DNA of 64,000 bases from Nitrospira sp. (lineage in GTDB: Bacteria > Nitrospirota > Nitrospiria > Nitrospirales > Nitrospiraceae): NCBI GenBank assembly GCA_005116745.1, contig SWDS01000006.1, positions 473,708 through 537,707 on the forward strand, given 5' to 3'. Each line of letters begins with the position of its first letter. Within the stretch, counting starts at the first letter, position 1. The position numbers were made by a program, and so were the translations under genes. The notes below the pieces were generated by a model that saw nothing but the letters and a program-made list of their open reading frames with translations, was not told the origin of the DNA and made no database searches. Positions 1,963-57,087 of this stretch are shown here, piece after piece.

Positions 1963-2025
1963 GAGAAATAATCGGGTTTTGCTCCTGCTGAGAATGGTGC
2001 GTAGCGCACCAGTGAGGTTTGCTTG

Positions 2026-3237
2026 ATGGATGACATGGATTCGATCACCGCTCTTTGGGAATGGCTCACTCGCGATGTCACGGTTGTCGGTGGGCTTCAG
2101 AGTCCCGTGCTGAGCTGGATTGGTGCTGTGGGGATCTTGGTCCTGTTTCTTTGGCATAGCGCGATGTTCCTCAGAGGTTTGTTCCACATCCAAGGGACGC
2201 TTGCGCGCTTTCACTTGTCCGTCGCGCCTTTGGTATTGGCACGGCAACAGGTGTCCAAAGATTGGCTGGTTATTCCGGCGTTGGCAAAAAAGCGAGCGCG
2301 TCTCGATGTCTCGTCAGAAACGCGACGCGATCTTGACGATCTGCATACATTGGATCAGGCGGTACGGTCAGAACAGGATTTTGCCAGAGACTGGTTTTCA
2401 TACCGCAAGACCCTCGCGGTAGAGCAGTCCGCCTGGTTTCTTGAGCCGACCGTCCATAGTCAGCGTTCCGCCAGTGAGTTTTTCTCGTTCGAATCTCTCT
2501 GCGCAGCCCATCTCAATGTCCGCTTTTACCGGCAGCTGCCCGCTTTCATGACGGGCATGGGGTTGATGTTCACCTTCCTCGCCATCTTGATCGGCCTCAG
2601 CAAGCTCCATGCGAACGGATCGGAGATCGATGGCATCCAAGGACTGATCAACGGCCTCTCAGGAAAGTTTGTGACATCCATCGTCGGCTTGGCCTGCGCC
2701 AATGCATTCACCCTCCTCGAACATTCTTTCTGGCATCGGTTGGACAACCGACACGGGGAGTGCATCTCCCTCCTGGACGAAATGTTTCCGCAGAGGGCTA
2801 CGGACCAACATTCCCAGGGGGGCCCATCGCCGAACGGATCTCCGGTGGCCATCGCCACTCCCATCCGAGGCGACACCGCACATCAGCTTGTCGAGGCCGT
2901 GCAGCAGCGCCTCGGGTCCACCGTCGCAGCGCTGAACTCAGCCGCAGAATCCCTCACGGCGCTGCAATCCAATCATCCACCGATGAAGTTTGATGATTTG
3001 CCAGCGGAGATTGGTCACGAGGTCCAGCGGGCGTTACGACCCATAATGAATCCCATACTGGACGCTATTCAAGACCTCAACCGTTCGATGAAGGAGCATG
3101 CTTCCCCAGTGCGGCTGTCTCAAGCCGAGATCGAAGCGATGTTTCAGGATCTCAGGAATACCACCGCCGCAACGACAGAACCTGCACGTCCGATCCATAA
3201 AGATCGCAATGCAGGAAAACCATCTCGTCTCACCTGA
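2026..3237 (+). CDS. zorA: ZorA-like MotA/TolQ/ExbB-family ion-channel subunit with cytoplasmic tail
   Basis: Three TM segments (IGAVGILVLFLW; LPAFMTGMGLMFTFLAILIGL; GLSGKFVTSIVGLACA), a ZorA-type 'ASEFFSFESL...N.RFYRQLP' segment before TM2, and a helical C-terminal tail of about 170 aa. Confidence 0.75.
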   Translation: MDDMDSITALWEWLTRDVTVVGGLQSPVLSWIGAVGILVLFLWHSAMFLRGLFHIQGTLARFHLSVAPLVLARQQVSKDWLVIPALAKKRARLDVSSETRRDLDDLHTLDQAVRSEQDFARDWFSYRKTLAVEQSAWFLEPTVHSQRSASEFFSFESLCAAHLNVRFYRQLPAFMTGMGLMFTFLAILIGLSKLHANGSEIDGIQGLINGLSGKFVTSIVGLACANAFTLLEHSFWHRLDNRHGECISLLDEMFPQRATDQHSQGGPSPNGSPVAIATPIRGDTAHQLVEAVQQRLGSTVAALNSAAESLTALQSNHPPMKFDDLPAEIGHEVQRALRPIMNPILDAIQDLNRSMKEHASPVRLSQAEIEAMFQDLRNTTAATTEPARPIHKDRNAGKPSRLT

Positions 3238-3252
3238 AACAGCACGGAGGAA

Positions 3253-3894
3253 ATGAAAGGGATGAAGTCGAGCTTTACACTGGACTCGCGTGACAACTCA
3301 GCGGTGGTGACGAGTGGGGTTGCCGATCTTATGACCTCGCTCGCCGTCATCTTCATTCTCTTGCTCGTGGCCTATATGACTCGCGTCGAGGATGGACATA
3401 CCAATTTGGCCAAGAGCCGTGGTACTCCAACGGACAGCACACCGAGAATCGATCCACCTCATCCAGCCCTGGAAACTAAAATGCCAAGCACCCACACGAT
3501 TACGGTGCCGGATACGGCGATTACCTTTGAGTTTGGGAAAAGCACGTTGCTCCAGACGGCCGAGATCTTCTTGTCCGAGACCATGCCACACTACGCCTCA
3601 CTCGTCTGCACGCCTGGAGAGCAAGAAGTAGAAGCCTTTGTGATCGAGGGATACACCGATGATCTGGGTGACGACATACGTAATCTGAGACTCAGTCAGG
3701 AACGCTCTTTTGCGGTGCTGGCCAAAAGCTTGGAAGTGATCCGCGAGAAGCTTCCGTGGGCCTATGAGTGCTTCTTGCAGAAAGCCACCGCGAATGGGCG
3801 TGGGAGGCAGGATCTTTTACGGAATGAGATAGGGCAACCAGCCCGCGAAAAAAGCCGCCGTGTCATGTTCAAAATCCACATGCGCCCCACGTAG
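3253..3894 (+). CDS. zorB: ZorB-like MotB/OmpA-family protein
   Basis: N-terminal TM with conserved Asp (VADLMTSLAVIFILLL); OmpA-C peptidoglycan-binding motifs (ITFEFGKS, IEGYTD, NLRLSQERS, SRRVMFKI); GGAGGA RBS; directly follows the ZorA-like gene. Confidence 0.78.
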   Translation: MKGMKSSFTLDSRDNSAVVTSGVADLMTSLAVIFILLLVAYMTRVEDGHTNLAKSRGTPTDSTPRIDPPHPALETKMPSTHTITVPDTAITFEFGKSTLLQTAEIFLSETMPHYASLVCTPGEQEVEAFVIEGYTDDLGDDIRNLRLSQERSFAVLAKSLEVIREKLPWAYECFLQKATANGRGRQDLLRNEIGQPAREKSRRVMFKIHMRPT

Positions 3895-5132: not shown

Positions 5133-6204
5133 GTTTAGTCCGTCCCTTCTTGGTCGAAGTTGTCACCATTCTATTCTGAGCGATCATGGCAGCCAGTTTG
5201 ATGGCCTCAATCAGGCTTCCGGGATCAGCGACGCCTTTCCCGACGATATCAAATGCGGTTCCATGATCCACTGAGGTGCGGATGATCGGCAAGCCCACGG
5301 TGAGATTGACACAGGTGCCGAAGGCGACCAGCTTCAGGGGAATGAGACCCTGATCGTGATAGAGGGCGACGACGCCGTCAAATGCCCCTTTCGCAGCTTT
5401 CCCAAACAGCGTATCAGCCGGCAAGGGATCACTTGCCAGAATGCCCTGTTGTTGGGTGGCGCGTGTTGCCGGGAGGATAATTCGCGCTTCTTCATCACCG
5501 AATAAGCCATGTTCACCGGCATGCGGATTGAGGGCAGCCACTCCTATCCTGGGGCGCTTGATGCCAAACAGTGTCGTCAGCGCCAATTGGGCCAAGCGGA
5601 TCGCCTTTTCAGTCTTGGCTTGCGTCAGCAGTGCCGGGAGATCTCTGATCGCGACATGTGTTGTGACGAACATGATGCGTAACGGTCCGCCCACGATCAT
5701 CATGCCTGATTCGTTCGCGTGGGTGAGATCAGCCAATAACTCGGTATGGCCTGGGTACCGGCAGCCAGCCATATTGATGGCTTCTTTGTTGATGGGCGCT
5801 GTCACCATGCCTTCAATACAGCCGATCTGAGCCAGTTCGACAGCCTTTTTGATAAAGGCGACTGAAGCGGCGCCAGTCTCCGCAGCGGCAATTCCTCGTT
5901 TGAATGTTCGCAGCGGTGTCTCCAGTGGGTCGAGTACCGCTACCGTTCCTCTACGCGGCGCCATCGATTCATGATTACGAACTTGGACTACGTTCAGTTT
6001 AAGCTTCAGTGACTTGATCGTTCGCTCCATGACGGGAAGGGATCCGATCACAACCGACCGACAGACGTTACGCAAGTGAGTACCAGACAGAGCTTTGGCG
6101 ATGACCTCCGGACCGATGCCGGACGGGTCTCCCATCGTGATTCCCAGCAAGGGGAGTTGAGGGGATGAAGAACGTGTGCGAGGTGATCGCGGTTCAGTTG
6201 ACAT
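5122..6204 (-). CDS. pdxA: 4-hydroxythreonine-4-phosphate dehydrogenase PdxA
   Basis: ITMGDPSGIGPE, TAPINKEA, GHTELLA, NPHAGE.G.FG.EE, YHDQGLIP.K, RTSVDHGTAFDI. Start probably ATG 6204. Confidence 0.97.
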   Translation of the reverse strand: MSTEPRSPRTRSSSPQLPLLGITMGDPSGIGPEVIAKALSGTHLRNVCRSVVIGSLPVMERTIKSLKLKLNVVQVRNHESMAPRRGTVAVLDPLETPLRTFKRGIAAAETGAASVAFIKKAVELAQIGCIEGMVTAPINKEAINMAGCRYPGHTELLADLTHANESGMMIVGGPLRIMFVTTHVAIRDLPALLTQAKTEKAIRLAQLALTTLFGIKRPRIGVAALNPHAGEHGLFGDEEARIILPATRATQQQGILASDPLPADTLFGKAAKGAFDGVVALYHDQGLIPLKLVAFGTCVNLTVGLPIIRTSVDHGTAFDIVGKGVADPGSLIEAIKLAAMIAQNRMVTTSTKKGRTKRVA

Positions 6205-7198
6205 AGAGATGTACCGTATAACCGATATAGAACACCGCTCCGGCGGCGAGCAGCCACGGTCGCCACCGTCCACCGATCAGAATCTGCAGGAGGCAGAATC
6301 CCACGGCCAGCACGGCTAGGATCATGGTGGTCAATGCCGATGATGCAATGACCCACTCGGTTCCGATCAACCCCAGCGCAACCGGGAAGGTGCCTTGAAA
6401 GACCATGGCACCCGTAACATTGGCCACGGCGAGCCGGTCTTTCTTGCGATAGAGCCAGAGAAAACTATTGGACATCTCCGGTAGCTCGGTAGCGAGTGGC
6501 GCGATCAGCAGCGCCAAGATCAACGGCGACATGGCGAACAAGCCGGCCATCGATTCTGCAGCCATGACAAATAAATGGGCGCCCATGATCAATCCACCTA
6601 AACCCAAGAGGGATTGAAATCCGATCATGGCATAGGACGGCGTGGCTGCGTGCTTGTCGAAAATCAACGGCTCCAGCTCACCACCCCCTTCTTCCTCACC
6701 AGCGGGTGCGAATTTGAGCTTCATGTAGTAGATATACAAGCAGATCAATACACCGGCCGCGATGAGGTGAATCAGTTTGGACGGCACGAAGGCGCATCCC
6801 AAGGCGATAAAATACCCGATCATAAAAAACGTGAGGTCTGTTAGTACTTCATGATAGTTGAGCTGGAATCGGGCGGTCCGCTTGCCGGCTCGTGCATAGA
6901 GCAGCAGCAGCACAGCCAGGATGGGTAGCACCAGTGTGCTGAGCATGAACGGCGCGCCTAAGATGGCACCTAAGCCAACCTCAGCTTCTTCAGGGCTATC
7001 ACCGAAGAAAATCGCAATGATCGGGATCGAGGTCTCAGGCAGGGTTGTGCCGATGGCGGCAAAGACACTACCAACGGCACCCTCGGAGATACCACGCCGC
7101 TTGCCAAACCATTCAATGGCGTTCGTAAAGAGTGCACACCCACCAAGCGTGACCGCGACGGAAACGAGAAAGAGGAGCACGTAGTACAGCACGGTCAT
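6194..7198 (-). CDS. Ca2+/cation antiporter family (CaCA, YrbG-like) membrane protein
   Basis: Two alpha-repeats (AIGTTLPETS; APLATELPE) and about 10 TM helices; start overlaps the larC stop (ATGA). Confidence 0.88.
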   Translation of the reverse strand: MTVLYYVLLFLVSVAVTLGGCALFTNAIEWFGKRRGISEGAVGSVFAAIGTTLPETSIPIIAIFFGDSPEEAEVGLGAILGAPFMLSTLVLPILAVLLLLYARAGKRTARFQLNYHEVLTDLTFFMIGYFIALGCAFVPSKLIHLIAAGVLICLYIYYMKLKFAPAGEEEGGGELEPLIFDKHAATPSYAMIGFQSLLGLGGLIMGAHLFVMAAESMAGLFAMSPLILALLIAPLATELPEMSNSFLWLYRKKDRLAVANVTGAMVFQGTFPVALGLIGTEWVIASSALTTMILAVLAVGFCLLQILIGGRWRPWLLAAGAVFYIGYTVHLYVN

Positions 7199-8412
7199 GC
7201 TCGGCCTCGCGAAGCTGTGATTCTCGTTTTCTTGCGTCCCTGTCGATAGGCCATCAGCGCATCCTCCATTACTGTCTTGAGCGGCTGGCCGGTTCGTTGC
7301 GCGATGGCTTTGCAGTCCTCATATTCGGGGGCTGCTTTTTCCCATCCGGCGCCGACCTCGGCTACTTTCATACGAATGACTCCGCCTGGCGTCGTGACGG
7401 GGACGAATCGCCTGGTGAGGACCTGTCGGCGTACTTCATGAAGTCGCACTCCGAGCGTGGTCGTTTCCTGGAAGAGGACCTCAATCACGGCATCCGTCCG
7501 GTCTTCAGTAGCTAGGCAGCTCAGCAGAATTCCTGGCCGACTTTTCTTCATGACGACGGGAACCAGCACGACATCAACAGCACCGACCTGAAAGAGCTGC
7601 TCCATGATGTATTCGTAGGTCTGTGGACTGAGGTCGTCAAGATTCGTCTCAATCTGTATCATCGGCTCGGTCGGATTGGCCGCCGACGTGGACTCTTCCT
7701 CCACAAACAGGCGCAAGGCATTCGGCCATCCGTCTGGATCCTGGTCGCCGGCTCCGTAGCCCACGGCCGTACTCTTCATGGTCGGCATCGGGCCGAATTC
7801 AGACGCCAATGTTCGAAGCAGCGCAACCCCGGTGGGGGTGGCAAGCTCACAACGCGGACCGTCGGCGTAGATCGGAATTCCCTTCGCCAGCGCCGCCACC
7901 GCAGGCCCTGGAACCGGTAAGAGTCCGTGTGAGGTTTGAATCGACCCGGCTCCAACATTGATCGGAGAGGCGGTGATTTGGGTGGCGTTCAAGAGATAGC
8001 ACCCCAGCACGCCACCGACAACATCGATAAACGAATCCATCACTCCGACTTCATGAAAGTGAACATCTTTTGGATCGACACCATGCGCCACTCCTTCGGC
8101 CTCAGTCAGTCGATCAAAGACCGACTGGCTCCGTTCCTTGACCGGGCCTGGCAACGTGCTGTCGACAAGGATTTTTCGAATGCGAGAGAGGGTCAGCGGC
8201 CGTTGAAATCCCTGTTGAACGATCACATCGACTTTGATTGCCGGGAGCACGCCACGATGTACCTCGCGCTTCCGCAATGTGTAGCCGGTAAGCTTGAGTC
8301 CTTTGAGGCCCTTGACCAAGTCAGTCCATGGTAACCCTGCGCTCACTAATGCGCCCAGGACCATATCTCCACTGACTCCGGAGAAACAATCGAAATGCAA
8401 ATGACGGCCCAT
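7195..8412 (-). CDS. larC: Nickel pincer cofactor biosynthesis protein LarC (Ni insertase)
   Basis: FDCFSGVSGDM.LGAL, VHFHEVG..DS..DVVG, PVPGPAV, ELATPTG, IETNLDD, KKSRPG, ETTTLGVR, PEYEDC. Confidence 0.95.
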   Translation of the reverse strand: MGRHLHFDCFSGVSGDMVLGALVSAGLPWTDLVKGLKGLKLTGYTLRKREVHRGVLPAIKVDVIVQQGFQRPLTLSRIRKILVDSTLPGPVKERSQSVFDRLTEAEGVAHGVDPKDVHFHEVGVMDSFIDVVGGVLGCYLLNATQITASPINVGAGSIQTSHGLLPVPGPAVAALAKGIPIYADGPRCELATPTGVALLRTLASEFGPMPTMKSTAVGYGAGDQDPDGWPNALRLFVEEESTSAANPTEPMIQIETNLDDLSPQTYEYIMEQLFQVGAVDVVLVPVVMKKSRPGILLSCLATEDRTDAVIEVLFQETTTLGVRLHEVRRQVLTRRFVPVTTPGGVIRMKVAEVGAGWEKAAPEYEDCKAIAQRTGQPLKTVMEDALMAYRQGRKKTRITASRGRA

Positions 8413-8633
8413 TCAGTTCCTTACATGCGATGCGCAAAATGACCGGACATCTTACCGAAGGCGTGGACGAACGGCAATCGCTGGTTCATTCTCGACGCTT
8501 CGTTGACAGCCTAGGGGTGCTATGGTATCCCCCTAAGAGTGCGGTTGAGTTGCATCGTGCCGAACACGACGCCCGCCACTCATGAAAGCATGGTTCAGGG
8601 TTTTTGTTGAAATTGTCACATACGCTCCATTAC

Positions 8634-9134
8634 ATGAGACGTCTGCTCGGGTTGCTCACCCTGTGTGCTTCTCTGATGGCCGTATTCCCGGCAGAGAGCC
8701 TCTCGAAAGAGAAGCCGCCCCGCGTTCCCAGGCCTGAGCCTCAGCTCAAAATTGTCGGCCTTAACATTGCCCCGACGCCGTATGCGCTGGGCAACGGGCC
8801 TCTTCAGTTTTCCGTTACAGTCCAGCTTCCGAAAGAAGTGGATGGATCCACGATTTTGGAGGTGACCTCGCTCATTAGTTCTCCGTCGAAGAGCTCGCTT
8901 CGATTTCTCACGTATCGACAGCCCATCCAAGTCTCTCTAGCCGTGGATGGGGAGACAGGACGATCGAAGGTGTCTGTCGAACTTGCGTGGGATGGCCAGG
9001 ATCACCGAAAGCAACTCGCCGGGGTGGGCATCTATTCGTATGAAGTGCGGACAAAGTTGTTGGCCAATGGAGAAAAAGGGTTACGTACCGTGATGGTTGC
9101 CTGGCCAAAGCGAGGCTTACTGGAAGTGAAATAG
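8634..9134 (+). CDS. Exported protein with a FlgD-like Ig segment
   Basis: Signal peptide MRRLLGLLTLCASLMAVFPAESLS; 'LAWDGQDHRKQLAGVGIYSYEV' resembles the FlgD Ig motif. Confidence 0.75.
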   Translation: MRRLLGLLTLCASLMAVFPAESLSKEKPPRVPRPEPQLKIVGLNIAPTPYALGNGPLQFSVTVQLPKEVDGSTILEVTSLISSPSKSSLRFLTYRQPIQVSLAVDGETGRSKVSVELAWDGQDHRKQLAGVGIYSYEVRTKLLANGEKGLRTVMVAWPKRGLLEVK

Positions 9135-9157: not shown

Positions 9158-9919
9158 CTATTTCTCTACTCCCAACATATTGATCCGATGTGCGAGGCAG
9201 GCCGCGCCGAATCCGTTGTCGATATTCATCACGCCTACACCCGCAGCGCAGGAATTGAGCATCGTCAGCAGCGCAGCGACTCCCCCGAAGCTCGCACCAT
9301 AGCCTCGGCTGGTTGGCACGGCAATGACCGGGCAGTGGACCAACCCTCCCACCACGCTCGGCAGGACACCGTCCATACCAGCTGCGACGATCACGACCTT
9401 CGCATCGAACAGCCGATCTCTCTTTCCGAGCAGTCGATGGATACCCGCAACCCCGACATCGTACAGTCGCTCGACGTGGCTACCCATCACTTCAGCCGTC
9501 ACACGAGCTTCTTCCGCCACGGGCACGTCCGCCGTTCCTGCGGTCACTACGAGTATATGCCCATGTTGTTTCTGCTTGGAAGCGTGAATCGCCACCAGAC
9601 GTGCATCAGGATAGTACTGTGCTCGCCGATCCAGGCGGCGAATGGCTCGCCCAACCGATGGGTTGGCACGAGTGGCAAGAAACGGGCCTTGTTTCTTGAT
9701 AAGCGCCCGAGCGATGGCGATAATCTGCGCGATGGTTTTCCCTTCACACAAGACGACCTCGGGGAACCCTTGTCGTAATGACCGATGATGATCGACTGAG
9801 GCAAAGCCCAGATCCTCAAAAGGTAGTGACTGCAGGCGCTGAAGTGCCTGTTCCACCGTGGCATCGCCTTGACGGACTTGCTGCAACAGCCGTTCGAGTC
9901 CTTCCGGATTCATGTCCAC
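9158..9919 (-). CDS. larB: Nickel pincer cofactor biosynthesis protein LarB
   Basis: DHHRSLRQGFPEVV.CEGKT, TAGTAD.PVAEEA, DVGVAGIHRL, AGMDGVLPSV, VPTSRGYG, NIDNGFGAA. Confidence 0.95.
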   Translation of the reverse strand: MDMNPEGLERLLQQVRQGDATVEQALQRLQSLPFEDLGFASVDHHRSLRQGFPEVVLCEGKTIAQIIAIARALIKKQGPFLATRANPSVGRAIRRLDRRAQYYPDARLVAIHASKQKQHGHILVVTAGTADVPVAEEARVTAEVMGSHVERLYDVGVAGIHRLLGKRDRLFDAKVVIVAAGMDGVLPSVVGGLVHCPVIAVPTSRGYGASFGGVAALLTMLNSCAAGVGVMNIDNGFGAACLAHRINMLGVEK

Positions 9920-10932
9920 TCCTTCTCTGATTTTGCATCCCGTTCCATCAAATCAGTCACGGCCTTCCTACAAGACTTATCGTCATACAGGACGGAATGA
10001 ATTTCTTGTATGATCGGCATATCGACCCGATGGCGCTGGGCCAATGTTAATGCGGCACGTGCCGTCCGAACGCCTTCAGCGACAGCCTGCATGCCTGCCA
10101 AAATTGTCTCCAACTTTTCTCCCTGGCCGAGGCGAACGCCTACCGAATGGTTTCGGCTGAGTGTGCCCGTACAGGTCAGGACCAGATCGCCGACCCCGGA
10201 CAGTCCATAAAATGTGCGCGGATCGGCTCCCATGGCCATGCCCAGCCTGACGGTTTCAGCCAGGCCTCGAGTAATGAGCGCCGCGCGGGCATTGAGTCCG
10301 AGGTTCAGGCCATCGATCACACCGGCAGCCAGTGCCATGACATTTTTCAGGGCTCCGCCGAGTTGGACGCCGATGACGTCTGTATCGGCGTACACACGAA
10401 ATACAGGCGTCATCAAGGCACCCTGAAACTGCCGCACGAGCTGTTCATCGGAGCCAGCCAAGCACAGGGCCGTGGGTTTCCTCATGCTGAATTCGGAAGC
10501 GAAACTGGGTCCAGACAGCACCATGAGGGAGCGGTGCATGGACGGCGATAACTCGTCCTCCATAACCTGGGTCATCAATTTGGCCGTGGTTTCTTCTATG
10601 CCTTTGGTTGCGCACACGAACGGTAGGGGCTTTGAGATGTAGGGTGCCAACTGATGCAACACGGATCGGGTTCTGTGTGAAGGAACGGCAAGCAGAATCC
10701 CATCACAGCCATGTACGGCGTCAACCAGTGAGGAAGTGGCCATCAAATTTGATGGAAGAGGGACACCCTTCAGGAAGACAGGATTTTCATGAGAGGTGTT
10801 GATGGCGTTGACGACGTCGTGTTCATAGGCCCAGAGGCAAACCTCCAGACCCTTTTCGGCCAGATGTTTCGCCAAGGCTGTGCCCCAGGCGCCAGCTCCA
10901 ATAACACCGAGCTTATTGATCGTGGTTGGCAT
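9910..10932 (-). CDS. gpsA: NAD(P)H-dependent glycerol-3-phosphate dehydrogenase
   Basis: GAGAWGTALA, ATKGIE, LSGPSFA, GGALKNV, GVGDLVLTC...SRN, AEGV.T. Confidence 0.97.
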   Translation of the reverse strand: MPTTINKLGVIGAGAWGTALAKHLAEKGLEVCLWAYEHDVVNAINTSHENPVFLKGVPLPSNLMATSSLVDAVHGCDGILLAVPSHRTRSVLHQLAPYISKPLPFVCATKGIEETTAKLMTQVMEDELSPSMHRSLMVLSGPSFASEFSMRKPTALCLAGSDEQLVRQFQGALMTPVFRVYADTDVIGVQLGGALKNVMALAAGVIDGLNLGLNARAALITRGLAETVRLGMAMGADPRTFYGLSGVGDLVLTCTGTLSRNHSVGVRLGQGEKLETILAGMQAVAEGVRTARAALTLAQRHRVDMPIIQEIHSVLYDDKSCRKAVTDLMERDAKSEKEWT

Positions 10933-12000: not shown

Positions 12001-12384
12001 GTGGCGTACAGGGAATACTCAAGGATGCAAGTCTGTCCTGCCTGCAGCCGGTCACAACCGGAGATCAACCGTTTCTGTATCCAATGCGGTCGGCAACTCG
12101 CCGACCGATCGGATAGTCGGTCCGCTACTCAACCCCCTAGCACTTCGGCACCAGACCAACTCAATCTCGCGGTACTCTACGGAATGGTCGTTGTGCTGAT
12201 CCTGGCCGTCTTGTTCCCTCCATGGGAGACACCGCCGACGCAGACCCCGGAGTTTCTCGGTCTGCATTTCATCCTCTCTCCTCCAACTCCGGACGGTGTC
12301 GTAAGCCGCATGCTTCTAACCATTGAGCTCGTTACAGTCGCGATTGCCGGCATGTATGGCGCGTTTCTGTTCAGAACAAAGTGA
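12001..12384 (+). CDS. Zinc-ribbon membrane protein
   Basis: CPAC...FCIQCG zinc ribbon plus two TM segments. The start may be the internal ATG of MQVCP. Confidence 0.75.
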   Translation: MAYREYSRMQVCPACSRSQPEINRFCIQCGRQLADRSDSRSATQPPSTSAPDQLNLAVLYGMVVVLILAVLFPPWETPPTQTPEFLGLHFILSPPTPDGVVSRMLLTIELVTVAIAGMYGAFLFRTK

Positions 12385-12454: not shown

Positions 12455-13255
12455 TCAGTCCAATGCGAGCGTGAGACACTTGGCGGACCCACCGGATTTC
12501 ATGAACTCATCGAGCTGAACCGGGTGGGTTTCATATCCTCGCATACGGAGCCAGGTTTGAGTGGTGGGACACCCCGTAGGAAGAACGACATGTTTCCCGA
12601 CACAAACGGCATTGCAGGCGAACTGTAGGGCTTCATCTTCTGGAACGGCAAGACGCAGCTTGTCAGGAATCCGTTCTGCAATCGCTGCCTGGCCATAGCG
12701 ATCAAAGGCAGCAGGGAAATAGAGGAGCTCGCCGCCGCTCAAAGAACAGAGGCAGGTATCCAGATGATAGAAGCGGCTGTCGACAAGTTCGAGGGGAATG
12801 ATTTCTCGGTGAAAGCGCTCACTAAGGATTGGGAAGACGCGGATATCCGATCGTTGTCGATAGCCACCGAACCAGTATTCTGAAAAACCCAGGAGATCGC
12901 CTGCTCCCTCAAAATACAGCTCGTGGTCTACTGTGACCACGTCATAGCCCTGCTTACGGAACCAATCTTCAAAATGAGCTTCTTCAGGCTGACGCTCAGG
13001 GTACCGGAAGCGACTCACGACGGCGGTTCGTCCCGCCACGATGCCGGCATTGGCCGTAAATACGAGGTCGGGCAACCCAGGCATGGGAGTCATGTGTTCA
13101 AGCACGACGCCCACGTCTTTTCCGAGGACGCGCATCAATTCATGCCACTGTCGCACCGCCCGTCCGTGATCGACGCGATTGGTACGCCGCATCCAGGGAT
13201 TGATCTCATACTCAATCCCAAAAAAATCCGGAGGACAGACGAGAAGGCGGCTCAT
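12455..13255 (-). CDS. Amidinotransferase-fold arginine dihydrolase (ArgZ/AgrE N-terminal domain homologue)
   Basis: CPPDFF.IEY.INPWM, PDLVFTANAG, SRF...ERQ.EE, FEGAGD, FYHLDTC, FACNAV, EF.KSGGSAKCLTL: the motifs of the cyanobacterial ArgZ N-domain, including the catalytic His and Cys. Confidence 0.88.
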   Translation of the reverse strand: MSRLLVCPPDFFGIEYEINPWMRRTNRVDHGRAVRQWHELMRVLGKDVGVVLEHMTPMPGLPDLVFTANAGIVAGRTAVVSRFRYPERQPEEAHFEDWFRKQGYDVVTVDHELYFEGAGDLLGFSEYWFGGYRQRSDIRVFPILSERFHREIIPLELVDSRFYHLDTCLCSLSGGELLYFPAAFDRYGQAAIAERIPDKLRLAVPEDEALQFACNAVCVGKHVVLPTGCPTTQTWLRMRGYETHPVQLDEFMKSGGSAKCLTLALD

Positions 13256-14496
13256 GTGGACTTCCCCAACAGCCTGGCAAGTTCCGACAGAAACGATGCC
13301 GCATCCATGACGAGGCCGACCGCCTGAAAGCTCCCTCGGTCGGCCAGCTTGGTCGGGACCGACGGGTTTACGTCGACACAGACAGTGGGAACGGTTGCCG
13401 GCAGAAGATTGCCCGTCGCCACGGAGTGGAGTGTCGAGGCGACAAGGAGAGCCAGCCCAACGCCAGGGATCAAGGCGCGCATCGCGCGTTGTGCCAGAAC
13501 GGAATCCGTGATCACTCCGGGCAATGGCCCATCGTCACGAATCGTTCCGGACATGACCACCGAGACGCCTTGGCGGACACAGGCTGCCATGATTCCTTGC
13601 TTGATCATTCCCGACGTGACCGCCGTCTCAATACTTCCAATCGTCCGAATGCGGTTGATGGTCCGCAAATGATGTTCATGGCCATGTGGGACTGCGCGCC
13701 CTGCTGTGAGTCCGTAGCCGAGTGATGTGCCGAACAGATCAGCTTCCATGTCATGTGCAGCCAGCGCATTCCCACAAAACAGGATATGAATAAACCCCTG
13801 TTCGATCAGCCAGGTCAGCGCCTCTCGCCCACCGGCATGAATGATGGCTGGTCCACCGGCCAGCAAGACGTGTGAGTCGCTCTGCCGCTCTCTGTGTCGC
13901 TCTCTCATTTGACGCATTCGAGTCGCGACGTCGGCGATGATATGAGCATGGGGCCGTTCAGCCGAGACCTGAGACTCCATGAACCCAAAGACGTCTCGTT
14001 CGCGTGGCCGCTGGAGGGGAATGACACGCACCCCCTCTCGACCGATCACGATGTGATCCCCACGACGAACTTCGTTCATCGGCACGGCCTGGGCGGCGGA
14101 GCCAGCCTCATTGACCACGATCGCGAGATCCATTTCGATTCGATCCACGTCTAGCCATCGACCGTTGAGCCGGATCTGGGTGGGGAGGTGTGTCGTGGCA
14201 TAGAAGTCATCGGGTAACACCCCGTCGGCAGGCGCACAGTCGGTGCGGCAGTCGGCCTCACGTTCGATCGAGGCGCCGTGTGGCTGAATCGCCTTCAAAA
14301 TGTCGTCTAGAAGCGTTCTTGAAGCAGTTTGGATCCGGATACGGGCATGAGACGCTTCTTCCCTTGTCTTGCCGATGTGCACGTCCTCCAGGTCGAAGGT
14401 TCCTCCCATCATCAGGATGAGATCGAGCACCTTAGCGAGTACGAGAGAGTCGATGATGTGTCCTTGAAGACACACGCGTTCTTGGTAGTGGTTCAC
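13252..14496 (-). CDS. TIGR00300 / LOR-SDH-conserved-region protein (AgrE C-terminal, ornithine cyclodeaminase-like)
   Basis: LQGHIIDS, APADGVLPDDFY.TT, MDLAIV, F.FM.S.VS.ER, GGPAIIH.G, GNALAAHD.E, G.IRDDGPLP, LHSVATGN, VCVD.NP..P.KL.DRGS; ATGA overlap with the downstream gene. Confidence 0.9.
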   Translation of the reverse strand: MNHYQERVCLQGHIIDSLVLAKVLDLILMMGGTFDLEDVHIGKTREEASHARIRIQTASRTLLDDILKAIQPHGASIEREADCRTDCAPADGVLPDDFYATTHLPTQIRLNGRWLDVDRIEMDLAIVVNEAGSAAQAVPMNEVRRGDHIVIGREGVRVIPLQRPRERDVFGFMESQVSAERPHAHIIADVATRMRQMRERHRERQSDSHVLLAGGPAIIHAGGREALTWLIEQGFIHILFCGNALAAHDMEADLFGTSLGYGLTAGRAVPHGHEHHLRTINRIRTIGSIETAVTSGMIKQGIMAACVRQGVSVVMSGTIRDDGPLPGVITDSVLAQRAMRALIPGVGLALLVASTLHSVATGNLLPATVPTVCVDVNPSVPTKLADRGSFQAVGLVMDAASFLSELARLLGKST

Positions 14497-45999: not shown

Positions 46000-46570
46000 G
46001 GCGGTTTCAAGTTCCAAGTGCAACGGGTGAATGGGAGCGGAGTTCCGCATAAACTTCCAGGGGCGTCGCAAAATTAAGACATTTTCGCGGGCGCGTGTTC
46101 AGCCGATGGGCAATGGCGTTCAACTCGCGCTGCGTGTAGCCCGACAAGTCCGTGCCCTTCGGCAAGTACTGGCGCAGCAACCCGTTGGTATTCTCGTTGG
46201 TGCCGCGTTGCCAGGGACTATGCGGATCGGCAAAAAAGATCTGAAGCGCACGCCGCTGAGCCAACTGCTCATGCTCGGCCATCTCTTTGCCCCGATCGTA
46301 CGTCAGGGTTTTGCGCAGTGCGGCGGGTACGTGCCGGAGTGTCTTCGTGAAGCCCTGGCGGGCACTCGTCGCATCCGTCCCCTCCATCCGAGCTAGGATG
46401 ACCAGGCGCGTCGTCCGCTCGACCAGCGTACCGATGGCCGACGTATTGCGAGCCCCCTTGAGGAGGTCGCCTTCCCAGTGGCCGGGCACCGTGCGGGTCG
46501 CCACCTCGGCTGGACGTGCGTCAAACCTTAGCCCAGTTGGGCCGGTCGTGTTGCACTTGGAGTTAGAACC
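46000..46570 (-). mobile_element. Internally deleted IS30-family element
   Basis: IR at 46000-46024 (GGCGGTTTCAAGTTCCAAGTGCAAC) and a related opposite IR at 46550-46570 (GGTTCTAACTCCAAGTGCAAC on the minus strand); only the 3' part of the transposase lies between them. Confidence 0.8.
46007..46528 (-). pseudogene. IS30 transposase, C-terminal DDE fragment
   Basis: RPAEV..R.VPGHWEGD, LVER.TR, TLTYDRG.EM, FADP.SPWQRGTNENTNGLLRQYLPKG, LN.RPRKCL. The N-terminal HTH is missing; the ORF-track TTG start at 46651 lies outside the element. Confidence 0.9.
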
Positions 46571-46602
46571 TAAGCAGGTATTTATCGTCAGTTTGAAAGA
46601 AG

Positions 46603-46645
46603 AGTGGGGGGTGAGCGTCCGCCGAATGCGGAGCTCACCCCCACT
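46603..46645 (-). terminator. Intrinsic terminator of tal
   Basis: Stem AGTGGGGGTGAGC...GCTCACCCCC(C)ACT followed by CTTCTTTC on the minus strand, immediately after the tal stop. Confidence 0.75.
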
Positions 46646-46654
46646 AGACAACTA

Positions 46655-48855: not shown

Positions 48856-49659
48856 TCAACGAAGGTTCAAAACATCCATCATATCGTATAAACCAGGCGG
48901 TTGGCGGACGACCCACCTGGCGGCTCGCAGGGCTCCGATGGCGAACGTATCCCGGCTACTGGCCCGATGGGTGACCTCGATTCGTTCCCCCATGCCACCA
49001 AACAGAATCGTATGGTCGCCGACGATATCACCGGCGCGAATAGTTTGTATCCCGATTTCTGTTTTCGTTCGTTCTCCGATCAGTCCCTTGCGGGCATAGA
49101 CTCCGACTTGGTCCAAGTTTCGGCTCACCGAACGGGCGAGGACTTCAGCAATCTTGAGGGCCGTGCCGCTCGGCGCGTCCTTTTTCAGCCGGTGGTGGGC
49201 TTCAATCACTTCGATGTCGTACTCGTCCCCAAGCGTTCTGGCCATTTCGCCGATGACTTTGCAGATTAGGTTGATCCCAACACTCATGTTCGGAGAAAAG
49301 ACACAGGGAATTTGCTGGGCCAGCAACCTCAGCTCATCGAGTTGAACAGCCGAAAATCCTGTGGTTCCGATAACCATGGCCCGTCGATGGCGAGCAACGA
49401 TCCGCATATGTTCCAGTGTCGCCGAGGGCGATGAAAAATCGATCACAGCCTCCCCTCGCTCCATCAGGATGGAGAGATCATCCGTGATGGGAATGCCGGC
49501 ACGACCTGAGGCTGCAGTCTCGCCCGCATCTTCACCCAACGCCGGATGCCCTGTCCCCTCTAAGGCCCCTGCCAATGTCAAAGCCGTTGAATCTCGGATT
49601 AGTGACACTAGTCGGCAACCCATTCGGCCGGCTGCACCCGCTACAATGATCTTGATCAT
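48856..49659 (-). CDS. dapB: 4-hydroxy-tetrahydrodipicolinate reductase
   Basis: GAAGRMG, IDFS.P, IGTTG, SPNMSVG.N, E.HHR.K.DAPSGTA, RAGDIVGDH, HRA.SR..FA.GA. Confidence 0.97.
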   Translation of the reverse strand: MIKIIVAGAAGRMGCRLVSLIRDSTALTLAGALEGTGHPALGEDAGETAASGRAGIPITDDLSILMERGEAVIDFSSPSATLEHMRIVARHRRAMVIGTTGFSAVQLDELRLLAQQIPCVFSPNMSVGINLICKVIGEMARTLGDEYDIEVIEAHHRLKKDAPSGTALKIAEVLARSVSRNLDQVGVYARKGLIGERTKTEIGIQTIRAGDIVGDHTILFGGMGERIEVTHRASSRDTFAIGALRAARWVVRQPPGLYDMMDVLNLR

Positions 49660-49687
49660 CTTGTCGTATACCTAGATCTTGATTAAG

Positions 49688-50566
49688 TTAGACCAACGCC
49701 GCATCCTTGAGGACGCGAATCAATTTCTCTCGTGTGTCCTGTGCCATTGGGCAGAGTGGTAAGCGCAATTCTGGGTCAATCTTTCTCATGAGTCCTAACG
49801 CTTCTTTGACCGGAATGGGATTGGTCTCATAGAACAACGCGGCAAAGAGGGGAGAGAGCTTAAAGTGAATCCGTCGCGCTTCATCAATTCGTCCCTCGGC
49901 AAAGGCCTTCACAAGAGCGGCCATTTCCATCGGTACGATATTGGCGGTTACGGTAATCACGCCCTTTCCGCCGACTGCCATCATCGGTAACGTGAGGGAG
50001 TCGTCGCCGGCTAGCACGGTTAGGCGGTCACCGCACATCTGCACGATATCTGAGGCCTGTTGGACCGAGCCACTCCCTTCCTTGACTCCAACGATTGTCT
50101 GAATGGCTGAGAGTCTGGTGATCGTTGAGGGGAGCATGTTGACCCCAGTACGACCGGGGATATTGTACAGGATTATGGGGAGGTCCACGGCCTCTGTAAT
50201 CGCCTTGTAGTGTCGATAGAGTCCTTCCTGGGTCGGCTTATTGTAGTAGGGAGTAATAAGCAACGCGCCGTCAGCTCCGGCCTGCTTTGCATGTTTTGTG
50301 AGGGTGATGGCTTCTTCTGTGCTATTCGAACCCGTTCCGGCAATCACGGGTACCCGACGACGGACCACCTCAACCGTCAACTCAATCACCCGAGTATGCT
50401 CGCTATGAGAAAGGGTAGCCGATTCACCAGTGGTTCCACAGGGGACAATGCCGTTGGTGCCATTGGCGATCTGCCATTCGATCAACTCGGCCAAGGCGCG
50501 CTCGTCGACCTTGCCCTGTCGAAATGGCGTCACAATTGCGACAAGAGATCCAGTAAACATACTCAC
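49688..50566 (-). CDS. dapA: 4-hydroxy-tetrahydrodipicolinate synthase
   Basis: A.VTPF, CGTTGES.TL, GTGSNST, TPYYNKP, YNIPGRT, GVKE, NPIPVK. Confidence 0.97.
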   Translation of the reverse strand: MSMFTGSLVAIVTPFRQGKVDERALAELIEWQIANGTNGIVPCGTTGESATLSHSEHTRVIELTVEVVRRRVPVIAGTGSNSTEEAITLTKHAKQAGADGALLITPYYNKPTQEGLYRHYKAITEAVDLPIILYNIPGRTGVNMLPSTITRLSAIQTIVGVKEGSGSVQQASDIVQMCGDRLTVLAGDDSLTLPMMAVGGKGVITVTANIVPMEMAALVKAFAEGRIDEARRIHFKLSPLFAALFYETNPIPVKEALGLMRKIDPELRLPLCPMAQDTREKLIRVLKDAALV

Positions 50567-51834
50567 TCCGTTTCGTTGAGGAAGGACGGAATTCTCTCGC
50601 CGCGTACGAGGTCGTCGTATGTTTCTCGCTCGCGAATCACGTGAAACTCTCCACCCTTGACGAGCACTTCCGGTACGCGGGGTCGAGAGTTATAATTCGA
50701 CGCCATCACAAAGCCATACGCTCCCGCACTCATGACTGCCAACAACTCACCAGGCTTGGTGCTAGGCAGCGATCGATCCTTGGCCAGAAAATCACCCGAT
50801 TCACAGACCGGCCCAACAATGTCCACTGTCTGTCTGGTCCGATGGAGGGCGTCTTCATTCACTGGACGAATTTCGTGGTAGGCGCCGTACAGGCTGGGCC
50901 GAAGTAAATCGTTCATGGCGGCGTCGACGATCACGAAGTGCTTCGTCTCACCGGCCTTCTCGTACAATGCCTTGGTCACCAGGATGCCAGCGTTGCCCAC
51001 GATGACGCGTCCGGGTTCCATGACCAGTGTCAACCCCAAATCTTTGACAAGCGGCGAAATCGCATTTGCCAGGTCTTGGGGCGAAGGGGGCTTCTCCTCG
51101 GAATAGGTAATACCGAGTCCGCCTCCGATGTTCAGGTAGCGGATGGTGATGCCCTGGCTTTTCAGTGTATGGATGAGCGTCACGACCTTCTTCAGCGAAT
51201 CGACGAACGGCGTCACCTCCGTCAACTGCGAGCCGATGTGGGCGTGGACACCGACGACGTCAATATGGTCCAGAGAGGACGCCATCTTGTATTCTTCCAG
51301 CGCGCGATCCGACGCGATGCCAAATTTGCTCTTCTTCATCCCCGTCGAGATGTAGGGGTGGGTTTTGGGATCCACGTCCGGATTAATCCGCAACGCGATG
51401 CGCGCCTTTTTCCCGACCGACGCCGCGACCTCGTTGATTGCATGAATCTCAGCCGACGACTCAACATTGAACATGAGAACATCGGCCTTCAGCGCGTCGC
51501 GGATTTCATCCGGCGATTTACCGACGCCGGCAAACACGATTTTGGAAGCAGGCACCCCGGCTTTGAGGGCTCGGAACAGCTCGCCGCCCGACACGATGTC
51601 CGCGCCGCTGCCTTCCTTGGCCATCAGGCGAAGGATGGCCAGATTGGAATTGGCCTTCATCGCAAACGCGATGACGTGCGGGATATTCTTGAAGGCACTG
51701 TCATAGGCGTGGAAATGCCGGACGAGTGTCTCATGGCTATAGATATAGCAGGGAGTGCCGAGTTCATTCGCCATGCGGCTGACGGGTACCTGTTCACAAT
51801 ACAATTCACCGTGGTGGTACTCAAAACTATTCAT
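50563..51834 (-). CDS. lysA: Diaminopimelate decarboxylase
   Basis: GTPCYIY, AMKANSN, D.VSGGE, KSKFG, H.HIGSQ, GGGLG, EPGR, GPVCESGD, GAYG..M.SNYNSRPR. Confidence 0.97.
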   Translation of the reverse strand: MNSFEYHHGELYCEQVPVSRMANELGTPCYIYSHETLVRHFHAYDSAFKNIPHVIAFAMKANSNLAILRLMAKEGSGADIVSGGELFRALKAGVPASKIVFAGVGKSPDEIRDALKADVLMFNVESSAEIHAINEVAASVGKKARIALRINPDVDPKTHPYISTGMKKSKFGIASDRALEEYKMASSLDHIDVVGVHAHIGSQLTEVTPFVDSLKKVVTLIHTLKSQGITIRYLNIGGGLGITYSEEKPPSPQDLANAISPLVKDLGLTLVMEPGRVIVGNAGILVTKALYEKAGETKHFVIVDAAMNDLLRPSLYGAYHEIRPVNEDALHRTRQTVDIVGPVCESGDFLAKDRSLPSTKPGELLAVMSAGAYGFVMASNYNSRPRVPEVLVKGGEFHVIRERETYDDLVRGERIPSFLNETE

Positions 51835-51880
51835 CGCTTAGTTCCTAGTGTTAATCCGATAGTCTCAGGCCCAACACCGC

Positions 51881-52108
51881 TTATCGTATTCCGATCGGCT
51901 GCGATGGAGGGAGGTCCGTCTCATGGCCTCCCAGGGTAGGGTCCGGTTCAGCCGACTCTGTTGCCTGCCGCTCTGCCTCGATGGCATGTTGCCGTTTCTG
52001 TTTGGCGATCGTAGGCGCAACTCCGATGAGTTCCGGGGCGACCGGTGTTCCCACCACCCCGCAAGAAATCAGAAGCCCTGCCGATGCGATTACGAGGAAT
52101 GCTCTCAT
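51881..52108 (-). CDS. Small lipoprotein (LptM/YifL-like position, upstream of lysA)
   Basis: Lipobox LIS-C, then GVVGTPVAP; conserved argH-lipoprotein-lysA position; overlaps the argH stop. Confidence 0.7.
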   Translation of the reverse strand: MRAFLVIASAGLLISCGVVGTPVAPELIGVAPTIAKQKRQHAIEAERQATESAEPDPTLGGHETDLPPSQPIGIR

Positions 52109-53517: not shown

Positions 53518-54731
53518 CAGGACGAGGCTTTCTTTCTCTGTGCGCGAATCTTCAGCCGCAAGGCATTCAGCCGGATGAAGCCTTCTGCGTCCTTCTGGTT
53601 ATACACCTCATCTTCCTCGAAGGTGGCGATGTCGAGTCGATAGAGTGACTGTTTCGATTTACGTCCTGCTAGGGTGCAGCTTCCCTTATAGAGTTTGACC
53701 CGTGCGATGCCGCTGACGTCTTTTTGTGCCTCATCGATAGCGGTCTGTATCATTTCGCGCTCAGGGCTGAACCAATATCCGTTGTAGATCAGATCCGCAA
53801 ATCGTGGGATCAAACTGTCGCGGAAGTGAAGGACCTCGCGGTCCATCGTCAGGGATTCAAGTCCGCGATGAGCCACGTGTAGAATCGTCCCTCCCGGCGT
53901 TTCATACACACCGCGAGACTTCATCCCAACGTAGCGGTTTTCCACCAAATCGACCCGGCCGATCCCGTGTGCGCCACCTAGTTTATTGAGATGGGCAAGT
54001 AAGGTCGCAGGACTCATTTTCTTGCCATCGACTGCGACGGGATTGCCGGCTTGATACGCGATCTCCACTTCCAATGGCTTGTTCGGGGCCTTCTCCGGCG
54101 AAACAGTCAGCTGGAATATTTCATCCGGTGGTGATTTCCAGGGGTCCTCCAGAATGCCGCCTTCATAACTAATATGAAACAGATTTGGGTCTGTGCTGTA
54201 GGGTTTGGCTTTGGTCGCGGTCACCGGAATGCCGTGGCGATCGGCATACTCGATCAATTCACGCCGGGATCGCATGGTCCATTCCCGCCAAGGCGCAATA
54301 ATCTTGAGATTCGGCGCGAGGGCCATGTAGGTCAACTCGAAGCGCACCTGGTCGTTGCCCTTCCCTGTGGAGCCGTGCGACACCGCTTCGGCGCCCTCTT
54401 TGAGCGCAATTTCAGCCTGACGACGAGCGATCAGCGGGCGAGCGATCGACGTCCCCAGGAGGTAACAACCTTCGTACATCGCATTTCCTCGCAACATCGG
54501 GAACACATAGTCCTTGACGAAGGTCTCACGGAGATCCTCGACATAGACCTTCTTGACGCCGAGCGCCTGTGCCTTGACCTTGACGGCCTTGAGGTCTTCG
54601 CCCTGGCCGAGGTCGGCGCAGAACGCGATGATCTCGGCCTGATAGGTTTCTTGCAGCCACTTGAGGATGACGGATGTATCCAGTCCGCCGGAATAGGCCA
54701 GGACGATTTTCTTGATCGATGTTGGCTTCAT
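53517..54731 (-). CDS. argG: Argininosuccinate synthase
   Basis: [51 protein letters not shown]. True start is ATG 54731; the ORF track over-extends to 55286. Confidence 0.98.
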
Positions 54732-54739
54732 GGTGGATC

Positions 54740-56934: not shown

Positions 56935-57087
56935 GACGACGTATCCCCTTAAGAAAGAAGAAAAAGCTAGCACAGGGGCAATGGGAAGAGCAATAAGCGG
57001 AGCAGCGGGAAATTACTGTCAGAAGTCGCGTGCACGACATTCTCCAATCAGCTATTACGCGATAGGTGGTATCCTCCTGTTCCGAGT

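Follow-up and report, generated by a model that had tools for sequence, protein, structure and literature searches.

The closest described relatives of the locus analysed here are ArgZ (Sll1336) of Synechocystis and AgrE (Alr4995) of Anabaena, bifunctional arginine dihydrolase/ornithine cyclodeaminases that consist of a single fusion with the dihydrolase in N-terminal position. ArgZ was first described within the ornithine-ammonia cycle (PMC8262935; PDB titles), and AgrE yields proline, three NH4+ and CO2 per arginine (PMC8262935). For the catalytic residues of both proteins we relied on mutant chains and entry titles in the PDB: the N71S (6juz) and C264S (6jv1) chains mark catalytic residues, the former trapping a covalent intermediate according to the entry title, and C264S together with C264A (6lrh) marks the nucleophile cysteine. 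Ornithine cyclodeaminases (OCDs) of the TIGR00300 family are also described as stand-alone proteins, including the archaeal type (3c2q), MJ1480 (3mgj) and the NPAD-dependent OCD of Desguin 2025. Rv2323c of Mtb, annotated as DDAH (NF045659), is a stand-alone homolog of ~280 aa. Genetically, Mtb requires it to assimilate nitrogen from arginine and grow on it; the organism converts arginine to ornithine and proline with no arginase involved, and Rv2323c sits with rocD/rocE-type genes and no TIGR00300 OCD (PMC4569260). Urea and cyanate are examples of the small organic nitrogen compounds on which nitrifiers are known to draw. The ArgZ/AgrE-type pathway was not among the organic-nitrogen traits surveyed in 2023 across 70 nitrifier genomes (PMC10753782), and our literature search turned up no publication that connects Nitrospira with catabolism of arginine by ArgZ/AgrE-type enzymes.

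The window, that is, the whole 64-kb stretch of Nitrospira sp. DNA that was analysed, carries counterparts of both modules as two separate ORFs in different frames, with no covalent fusion. The gene for a TIGR00300-type ornithine cyclodeaminase (OCD; 13252..14496, minus strand, 414 aa, GTG start) is followed by that for a stand-alone arginine dihydrolase-like guanidino-modifying enzyme (ArgDH; 12455..13255, minus strand, 266 aa, ATG start). The plus strand reads TCAT at 13252-13255, hence ATGA on the minus strand, where the ArgDH ATG overlaps the OCD TGA, so that the two genes share 4 nt. An earlier note had described two coupled genes with this overlap, a TIGR00300-type protein followed by an amidinotransferase-fold protein with the motifs FEGAGD, FYHLDTC and GGSAKCL; direct reading of the sequence bears this out, the order being right for the minus strand, which the note had not named, and all three motifs being present in the 266-aa translation. 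A putative Shine-Dalgarno-like element, GGGGAAG (13260..13266, minus strand), lies 4-10 nt upstream of the ArgDH start, inside the coding end of OCD, and GGGGAGG, GGGGTGG or GGGAAG occupies the equivalent place upstream of ArgDH in Nitrospira loci. The 4-nt overlap (ATGA or GTGA) is kept in 29 of the 55 loci that contain both genes, the remaining loci having gaps of at most 183 nt. Metatranscriptome contigs from four runs cover OCD and ArgDH and cross 13252-13255, although they derive from relatives 90-95% identical and not from this strain, and may include DNA carry-over. A scan for promoters and terminators gave matches no more numerous than in shuffled sequence.

The assignment of OCD to its family is straightforward, with a TIGR00300 score of 466.1 bits against the curated cut-off of 410.8 and residues 7-408 aligned to profile positions 5-402 of 407. 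The protein comprises the three Pfam domains that it has in common with ArgZ/AgrE, namely PF04455 (residues 6-103, E 3e-30), PF21571 (residues 105-187, E 1e-31) and the Rossmann domain PF21570 (residues 189-406, E 6.5e-93). Its best PDB match is 3c2q (E 1.7e-92), and the same search matched it to AgrE 6lrf (residues 288-694, E 1.5e-90) and ArgZ 6juy (E 7.7e-88), in the range of 1e-88 to 1e-90 overall for the OCD part of these fusions. Like the stand-alone OCDs, the window protein is an unfused polypeptide of ~410 aa above the equivalog cut-off, with nickel-pincer biosynthesis genes nearby; it differs from them in that its gene is joined by translational coupling to one for an arginine dihydrolase-like protein, an arrangement implying that it is fed catabolically, with ornithine derived from arginine, and does not make proline from biosynthetic ornithine.

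ArgDH likewise matches the other module of the cyanobacterial enzymes over nearly its full length (residues 3-264), with E-values of 2e-69 to ArgZ 6jv0 and 2.7e-67 to AgrE 6lrf. Given E-values of 1e-69 to 1e-140 on long ORFs, chance matches are ruled out. Identity to the arginine dihydrolase domains of ArgZ/AgrE is 42-44%, as opposed to 20% to DDAH. C260, H164 and E116 of ArgDH align with the catalytic Cys264, His168 and Glu118 of ArgZ, and ArgZ Asn71 (FTAN motif) and Asp170 (HLD motif) correspond to N69 and D166, two columns that are at least 90% conserved among 51 diverse relatives; the residues marked by the N71S and C264S chains are thus both conserved. The AlphaFold model of ArgDH (pLDDT 82, pTM 0.83) was searched against the PDB with Foldseek, and the top 13 matches were all ArgZ/AgrE (TM 0.84-0.91, E down to 2.8e-30). 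On the NCBIfam arginine dihydrolase model NF052232, ArgDH scores 274 bits, under the 450 cut-off, and on NF052231 it scores 272 bits, under the cut-off of 1025 (the two scores of the pair on this model being 272 and 372). These cut-offs appear tuned to cyanobacterial fusions, and the sub-cut-off scores weaken the statement that ArgDH is an ArgZ orthologue, not the statement that it works like one. The deep branches of a neighbour-joining tree built from 220 ArgDH-like domains radiate like a star, and the node uniting ArgDH and ArgZ holds 153 of the 220 leaves, so that orthology to the ArgZ N-domain is neither proven nor disproven by it.

The 266-aa protein could alternatively be a one-step hydrolase, either a DDAH or an arginine-deiminase-like enzyme giving citrulline, with OCD fed ornithine from elsewhere, for example from arginine biosynthetic intermediates. 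DDAH (P. aeruginosa 1h70/3rhy; human DDAH-1) shares with ArgDH the superfamily fold, the Cys/His pair and two carboxylate-binding arginines, which residue mapping places at R88 and R135, and DDAH structures form the second-best fold class of the model (TM 0.77-0.81, about 0.8, E 1e-16). Pfam assigns ArgDH to PF19420 (DDAH_eukar) alone, at 45.6 bits with the gathering score at 23, its score of 243 bits on NF045659, the model of the Mtb 'dimethylargininase', nearly equals that on NF052232 and places it in a broad family with Rv2323c, and the names given in public records are 'N-dimethylarginine dimethylaminohydrolase' and 'arginine deiminase-related protein'. However, all three NCBIfam DDAH equivalogs score under their cut-offs (NF045659, 243 against 300; NF045660, 73 against 340; NF045658, 43 against 450), and the low identity to DDAH contrasts with that to ArgZ/AgrE. 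In the residue mapping, for which the PaDDAH reference sequence was validated against 3rhy_A, E65, D66 and K164 of PaDDAH are replaced in ArgDH by A68, N69 and D166, the states found in ArgZ and AgrE. Moreover, Rv2323c, the Mtb 'DDAH', itself acts as an arginine-utilisation gene, and the coupling, retained across phyla, to an enzyme that consumes ornithine agrees with a partner that produces it; we know of no link between DDAH and OCD. We consider a one-step hydrolase highly improbable, and reject DDAH and ADI alike on grounds of residues, identity and gene context.

The combination of ArgZ-type residues, 44% identity and a fold TM of 0.91 makes conversion of arginine via ornithine to proline, with release of three NH3 and CO2, the best reading of the locus. 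We regard it as likely that OCD and ArgDH form a co-transcribed, translationally coupled operon for a two-protein arginine-to-proline pathway, with OCD probably relying on a nickel-pincer cofactor. In the first step, ArgDH would use Cys260 as nucleophile, with His164 and Glu116, for two successive hydrolyses at the guanidino carbon, converting L-arginine to L-ornithine, 2 NH3 and CO2. OCD would then convert L-ornithine to L-proline and NH3, probably with the help of a nickel-pincer (adenine dinucleotide) cofactor that it holds non-covalently and that LarB, LarC and a LarE encoded elsewhere in the genome supply, for a net yield per arginine of three NH3 and one CO2. The expected chemistry would equal that of ArgZ/AgrE, whereas the architecture differs, the window having two polypeptides with OCD first, and the host is a chemolithoautotrophic nitrifier with larB and larC as neighbours and not a cyanobacterium. 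Here and below we infer substrates, products and cofactor, as well as any OCD-ArgDH complex or channelling and the physiological role. It is possible that the PF04455 domain brings the two proteins together in a channelling complex like that of ArgZ.

As for the cofactor, two genes of nickel-pincer biosynthesis sit 3-5 kb from the pair: larB (9158..9919, minus strand), encoding LarB, the first enzyme of the route (carboxylase/hydrolase; NF033503, 288 bits against a cut-off of 175), and larC (7195..8412, minus strand), encoding the nickel-inserting cyclometallase LarC with LarC1 and LarC2 domains (TIGR00299, 186 bits, cut-off 90; NF052512, 147 bits, cut-off 50). The earlier note overlooked both these genes and the nickel-pincer description of the OCD family. 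The alternative that OCD uses ordinary NAD+, larB/larC being close by coincidence and working for a different nickel-pincer enzyme encoded at another place in the genome, draws on AgrE having been crystallised in a ternary complex that contains ornithine and NAD+ (title of PDB entry 6lrg), which makes nickel-pincer dependence of the window OCD an extrapolation. It also accords with the gene arrangement, as larB overlaps the end of gpsA and larC a CaCA transporter gene, neither belonging to the OCD operon, and outside the genus Nitrospira the neighbourhood of the pair contains no lar genes. Furthermore, a PP-loop regular expression for LarE (SGGxDS) had no match in window ORFs of at least 100 aa or, across 80 loci, in ORFs lying up to ~7 kb from the pair, and NCBIfam scans identified neither LarE nor LarA among the 52 window ORFs. 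The lack of a LarA-like gene in the window cuts the other way, however, as does the retention of larB/larC near the pair in 14 Nitrospira-type loci, N. moscoviensis included, down to ~68% protein identity; larB keeps its relative position in these 14 loci and in the related loci L001 and L002 as well. In addition, TIGR00300 is now named 'ornithine cyclodeaminase, nickel-pincer nucleotide-dependent' by the NCBIfam curators, and the OCD family was reported in 2025 to use an NPAD cofactor (Desguin 2025, as cited in PMC13524815). We consider the NAD+ alternative unlikely; the window OCD probably uses a nickel-pincer cofactor, and the locus provides independent genomic support for the recent link between the TIGR00300 OCD family and such cofactors.

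The pairing itself is conserved across phyla. All 32 informative loci of the phylum Nitrospirota have OCD directly upstream of ArgDH on the same strand, and so do 21 of the 45 informative loci of other phyla, where pairs were found in Planctomycetota, Chloroflexota, Binatia, Gammaproteobacteria and Bacteroidota. About half of the ArgDH homologs outside Nitrospirota lack an OCD gene at distances up to 10 kb, and inspection of the loci without OCD for a hidden PF04455 domain identified one in a single case (L064). Outside Nitrospirota, OCD is the sole recurrent neighbour of ArgDH. The canonical nitrite oxidiser N. moscoviensis also has the pair, which is therefore not comammox-specific. Fusions of OCD and ArgDH constitute a small minority among the relatives. 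The view of the earlier note that the two halves of ArgZ/AgrE occur here as separate genes in the opposite order is thus borne out by homology, active-site residues, predicted fold and conserved pairing; its figure of three NH3 per arginine agrees with the published AgrE stoichiometry (PMC8262935). The word 'split', with its implication of descent from a fusion, needs correcting, as unfused pairs occur widely in different phyla and few of the relatives have a fusion.

The pathway most likely serves to salvage nitrogen from arginine and, in addition, to supply proline or keep arginine in balance in concert with argD, argF, argG and argH, all four of which lie within the window. The earlier note had suggested that the released ammonia could be a nitrogen or energy source comparable to urea and cyanate. 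The same enzymology might also serve purely internal ends, either proline supply or arginine balance, operating as an ornithine-ammonia cycle with ArgF, ArgG and ArgH, in which the ammonia would be re-assimilated and external arginine would not be accessed. The shared arg genes and the setting of the pair among the housekeeping genes truD, gpsA, pdxA and rsmA are compatible with this scenario, as is the original description of ArgZ within such a cycle. The pair is conserved in non-nitrifiers, for example Planctomycetota, the window as a whole has no arginine transporter or PutA gene, and neither it nor the 80 related loci have an amino-acid transporter, PutA or cyanophycinase beside the pair; nor did these 80 loci reveal recurrent neighbours indicative of a physiological role beyond lineage-specific synteny. 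On the other hand, transporters could be encoded elsewhere and uptake is compatible with the data, the stand-alone Mtb homolog supports growth on external arginine, and Nitrospira is already known to use urea and cyanate (PMC10753782). A purely internal role has a serious claim, which we place a little short of even. Regarding a stored source of arginine, our literature search yielded no usable evidence for cyanophycin in Nitrospira.

Both kinds of enzyme are already known, and the window pair is a new, currently misannotated member and not a new kind of system. As judged from sequence, the OCD-ArgDH pair of nitrite-oxidising Nitrospira very probably converts arginine to proline and three ammonia. 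In public records the genes are named 'TIGR00300 family protein', 'LKR/SDH-like', 'DDAH' or 'hypothetical', and as a result reconstructions of Nitrospira, many Planctomycetota and Chloroflexota probably miss the route from arginine to proline and 3 NH3. The practical gains are improved annotation and a testable hypothesis, and the unfused proteins allow both activities to be dissected separately. A farther-reaching proposal, which we regard as rather doubtful, is that Nitrospira, canonical nitrite oxidisers and comammox alike, exploit the nickel-pincer-dependent two-protein pathway to gain three ammonia from each arginine that dissolved or stored organic nitrogen provides. If this were true, arginine would join urea, cyanate and guanidine as a feed for nitrification, directly in comammox strains or by reciprocal feeding of ammonia oxidisers, and nickel supply would be a control point for the use of amino-acid nitrogen in nitrifiers.

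The two genes lie on the minus strand, with the ornithine cyclodeaminase gene (OCD; 13252..14496, 414 aa, GTG start) preceding the arginine dihydrolase-like gene (ArgDH; 12455..13255, 266 aa, ATG start). The plus-strand TCAT at 13252-13255 places the coding-strand ATG of ArgDH over the TGA of OCD, and a Shine-Dalgarno-like GGGGAAG (13260-13266, minus strand) is located within the end of the OCD coding region. All three motifs, FEGAGD, FYHLDTC and GGSAKCL, are present in the 266-aa ArgDH translation; thus, reading of the ORFs and the sequence bears out the coupled ORFs with an ATGA overlap and the motifs described in the earlier note. Given E-values of 1e-69 to 1e-140, the pair is not a chance pattern. 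OCD contains PF04455, PF21571 and PF21570 ('ArgZ-like C-terminal') and scores 466 bits (cut-off 410.8) on NCBIfam TIGR00300, named 'ornithine cyclodeaminase, nickel-pincer nucleotide-dependent' in release 20. It aligns over its full length with the C-terminal parts of the cyanobacterial dihydrolase-OCD fusions AgrE of Anabaena (6lrf residues 288-694, E 1.5e-90) and ArgZ of Synechocystis (6juy, E 7.7e-88), as well as with the archaeal stand-alone protein 3c2q (E 1.7e-92).

The alignment of ArgDH with the two fusions, which the earlier note had suggested, yielded a full-domain match at 44% identity, with residues 3-264 covering the N-terminal arginine dihydrolase domain of ArgZ (6jv0, E 2e-69) and the N-terminal domain of AgrE (6lrf, E 2.7e-67). 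Because all NCBIfam scores of ArgDH are below the cut-offs (274 bits against 450 for NF052232, 'arginine dihydrolase'; 243 against 300 for NF045659, 'dimethylargininase, Mtb type'), its function was probed through residues and fold. The ArgZ residues were taken from the PDB mutant chains N71S (6juz, an entry described as 'covalently bound to a reaction intermediate') and C264S (6jv1), and a P. aeruginosa dimethylarginine dimethylaminohydrolase (DDAH) reference identical to 3rhy_A was aligned with ArgZ, AgrE and ArgDH. Common to all four are the Cys nucleophile (C260 in ArgDH), the His (H164), the Glu of FEGxGD (E116) and the carboxylate-binding Arg pair (R88, R135). At the positions of DDAH E65-D66, ArgDH has A68-N69, the ArgZ/AgrE state (A70-N71), and H-L-K164 of DDAH is replaced by H-L-D166, again as in ArgZ/AgrE (D170). 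The 13 best PDB matches of the AlphaFold model of ArgDH (pLDDT 82) are ArgZ/AgrE structures (TM 0.84-0.91, 40-43% identity, E to 3e-30), with DDAHs ranking next (TM about 0.8, 20% identity, E about 1e-16). Homologs of ArgDH are named DDAH or 'arginine deiminase-related' in public records; given the ArgZ/AgrE-type residues and the fold ranking, these names look like superfamily-level labels. The nearest stand-alone relative studied genetically, Rv2323c of Mtb, likewise carries the DDAH annotation; Mtb needs it to assimilate nitrogen from arginine, and this organism forms both ornithine and proline from arginine with no arginase (PMC4569260).

The window belongs to a Nitrospira. The best homologs of the pair are proteins from Nitrospira MAGs (95% identity for ArgDH, 92% for OCD), and the window sequence is also present in a biofilter metagenome. 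A scan of GTDB species representatives, with OCD sought by tblastn, returned 80 loci. OCD was directly upstream on the same strand in all 32 loci of the phylum Nitrospirota with enough DNA, including those of N. moscoviensis NSP M-1, an N. defluvii-labelled MAG, a Thermodesulfovibrionia MAG and the MAGs named CG24E and ST-bin4, and in 21 of the 45 informative loci outside this phylum (Planctomycetota, Chloroflexota, Binatia, Gammaproteobacteria and Bacteroidota). Of 55 pairs, 29 retain the 4-nt start/stop overlap; in the others, the two genes are separated by no more than 183 nt. Clustering of all neighbouring ORFs identified OCD as the only gene travelling with the ArgDH-like gene outside Nitrospirota. 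This recurrent adjacency across phyla is strong comparative evidence that OCD and ArgDH serve one pathway, and it fits ornithine being the product of ArgDH and the substrate of OCD. The conversion of arginine through ornithine to proline proposed in the earlier note is well supported by homology, residues, fold and pairing, and we consider this enzymatic interpretation highly probable.

The pair had, however, been described as 'split', which reverses the direction. An exhaustive HMMER search over 1.84 billion representatives yielded 644 clusters with E below 1e-30; among the top 150, stand-alone proteins of about 265 aa predominate and full ArgDH-OCD fusions are few (homologous proteins P0139, P0222 and the truncated P0140). 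Hence, the unfused pair is the usual arrangement and the cyanobacterial fusion an exceptional one. A neighbour-joining tree of ArgDH-like domains is star-like at depth, and either form may have come first. PF04455, corresponding to the N-terminal domain of OCD (roughly 75 aa), is fused before ArgDH once (P0125, P0126, P0130, P0158) or twice (P0129, P0134), and in locus L064 it is encoded just upstream of the ArgDH-like gene (9750-9959), the rest of OCD being missing. These patterns suggest that PF04455 serves the dihydrolase as a module for interaction or regulation, and a PF04455-mediated physical OCD-ArgDH complex can be speculated upon from the same fusions. Other architectures include two tandem ArgDH-like domains (P0156, 667 aa) and an ArgDH-like domain with a C-terminal extension of about 420 aa dissimilar to OCD (P0154, 695 aa).

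Missed in the earlier note was the presence, 3-5 kb from the pair, of two genes for nickel-pincer cofactor biosynthesis, larB (9158-9919, minus strand; 288 bits, cut-off 175) and larC (7195-8412, minus strand; LarC1 and LarC2). The gene order, OCD-ArgDH, a small ORF, OMP, gpsA-larB, one ORF and larC-CaCA-pdxA, recurs in a complete Nitrospira genome (L001) and in 14 Nitrospira-type loci from GTDB, the most distant with an ArgDH about 68% identical; the arrangement of lar genes with the pair was not found in GTDB loci of deeper Nitrospirales or other phyla. According to the account in PMC13524815, Desguin 2025 (Int J Biol Macromol 330:147799) described an OCD with non-covalently bound nickel-pincer adenine dinucleotide, discovered via LarE neighbourhoods; the AgrE crystal structure, by contrast, contains NAD+ (6lrg title). 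Neither LarA nor LarE was found within the 64-kb window, so LarE must be encoded elsewhere if the cofactor is made. We infer that OCD is likely nickel-pincer-dependent.

Several neighbours deserve mention. The CaCA-family (Na+/Ca2+ exchanger-like) membrane protein gene (6194-7198, minus strand; NCBIfam score 64, far below the cut-off of 180) shares 4 nt with the end of larC, and the Ni_insertion to Na_Ca_ex pairing is kept in other Nitrospira (L001, a second locus, L002, and 13 GTDB loci); its product may transport cations, perhaps nickel, in connection with cofactor synthesis. The gene gpsA (glycerol-3-phosphate dehydrogenase; 9910-10932, minus strand) overlaps larB by 10 nt as listed and by 4 nt in L001 and stays next to it across Nitrospira, a surprising operon companion for a cofactor gene. 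Two conserved plus-strand genes within the syntenic block gave no family match. One (8604-9134) separates larB from larC and encodes a 176-aa protein whose N-terminus resembles a signal peptide; the other (12001-12384) is convergent with ArgDH and encodes a 127-aa zinc-ribbon and transmembrane protein.

By analogy with ArgZ, ArgDH would perform two guanidino hydrolyses via Cys260 thiouronium intermediates, converting arginine to ornithine, 2 NH3 and CO2, and OCD would cyclise ornithine to proline with release of a third NH3, shuttling hydride on a pincer or nicotinamide cofactor; the stoichiometry equals that published for AgrE (PMC8262935). Translational coupling would keep OCD and ArgDH at matched levels. 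Both genes are covered by contigs from four metatranscriptomes (estuary, biofilter and river); these mostly share 90-95% identity with the window and so derive from close relatives. The OCD/ArgDH junction lies within single contigs in runs X23 (13071-13610), X24 (13019-13461), X25 (13186-13330) and X26 (13148-13316), and another X25 contig (14066-14647) extends from OCD into the truD 3' end. This is consistent with co-transcription, assembled contigs being no measure of expression and possibly reflecting DNA carry-over.

Elsewhere in the window, a truncated IS30-family transposase ORF (46007-46651, minus strand; 214 aa, matching only model positions 115-267 of 267) is probably an IS remnant and adjoins a fructose-6-phosphate aldolase/transaldolase gene. 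At 2023-3894 (plus strand), a ZorA-like/MotA-ExbB-like protein (404 aa; weak matches of 29-43 bits, below cut-offs) precedes an OmpA-like protein that binds peptidoglycan (213 aa); both are kept in L001 and L002, where Pfam assigns the first to ZorA-like_t1, and they could represent a stator-type pair or the remains of a Zorya-like system.

An arginine and lysine biosynthesis cluster (48856-56973, minus strand), including lysA, dapA and dapB, also encodes argD (55717-56973), argF (54740-55717), argG (53517-55286 as listed, TTG start, 589 aa) and argH (52105-53517); the listed argG ORF is over-extended, with homology starting at residue 190 and the upstream part overlapping argF. Because these four genes share the window with the dihydrolase, all parts of a cyanobacterial-type ornithine-ammonia cycle are present, making it possible on paper. 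Near the pair, neither the window nor the related loci yielded a gene for a transporter, PutA or cyanophycin. The GTDB scan found the pair in N. moscoviensis, a canonical nitrite oxidiser, and in many non-nitrifiers; it is therefore not a comammox adaptation. Our literature search found no paper on an arginine-to-proline OCD/ArgDH pathway in Nitrospira, and a survey of organic-nitrogen genes in nitrifiers omits it (PMC10753782). Both kinds of enzyme have been characterised elsewhere; what is new is the occurrence of the pair, currently misannotated, in an organism where the pathway had not been discussed, to which the nickel-pincer cofactor context is added. The conservative reading is that the pair provides nitrogen salvage and proline supply, with a putative feeding of nitrification by arginine being possible.
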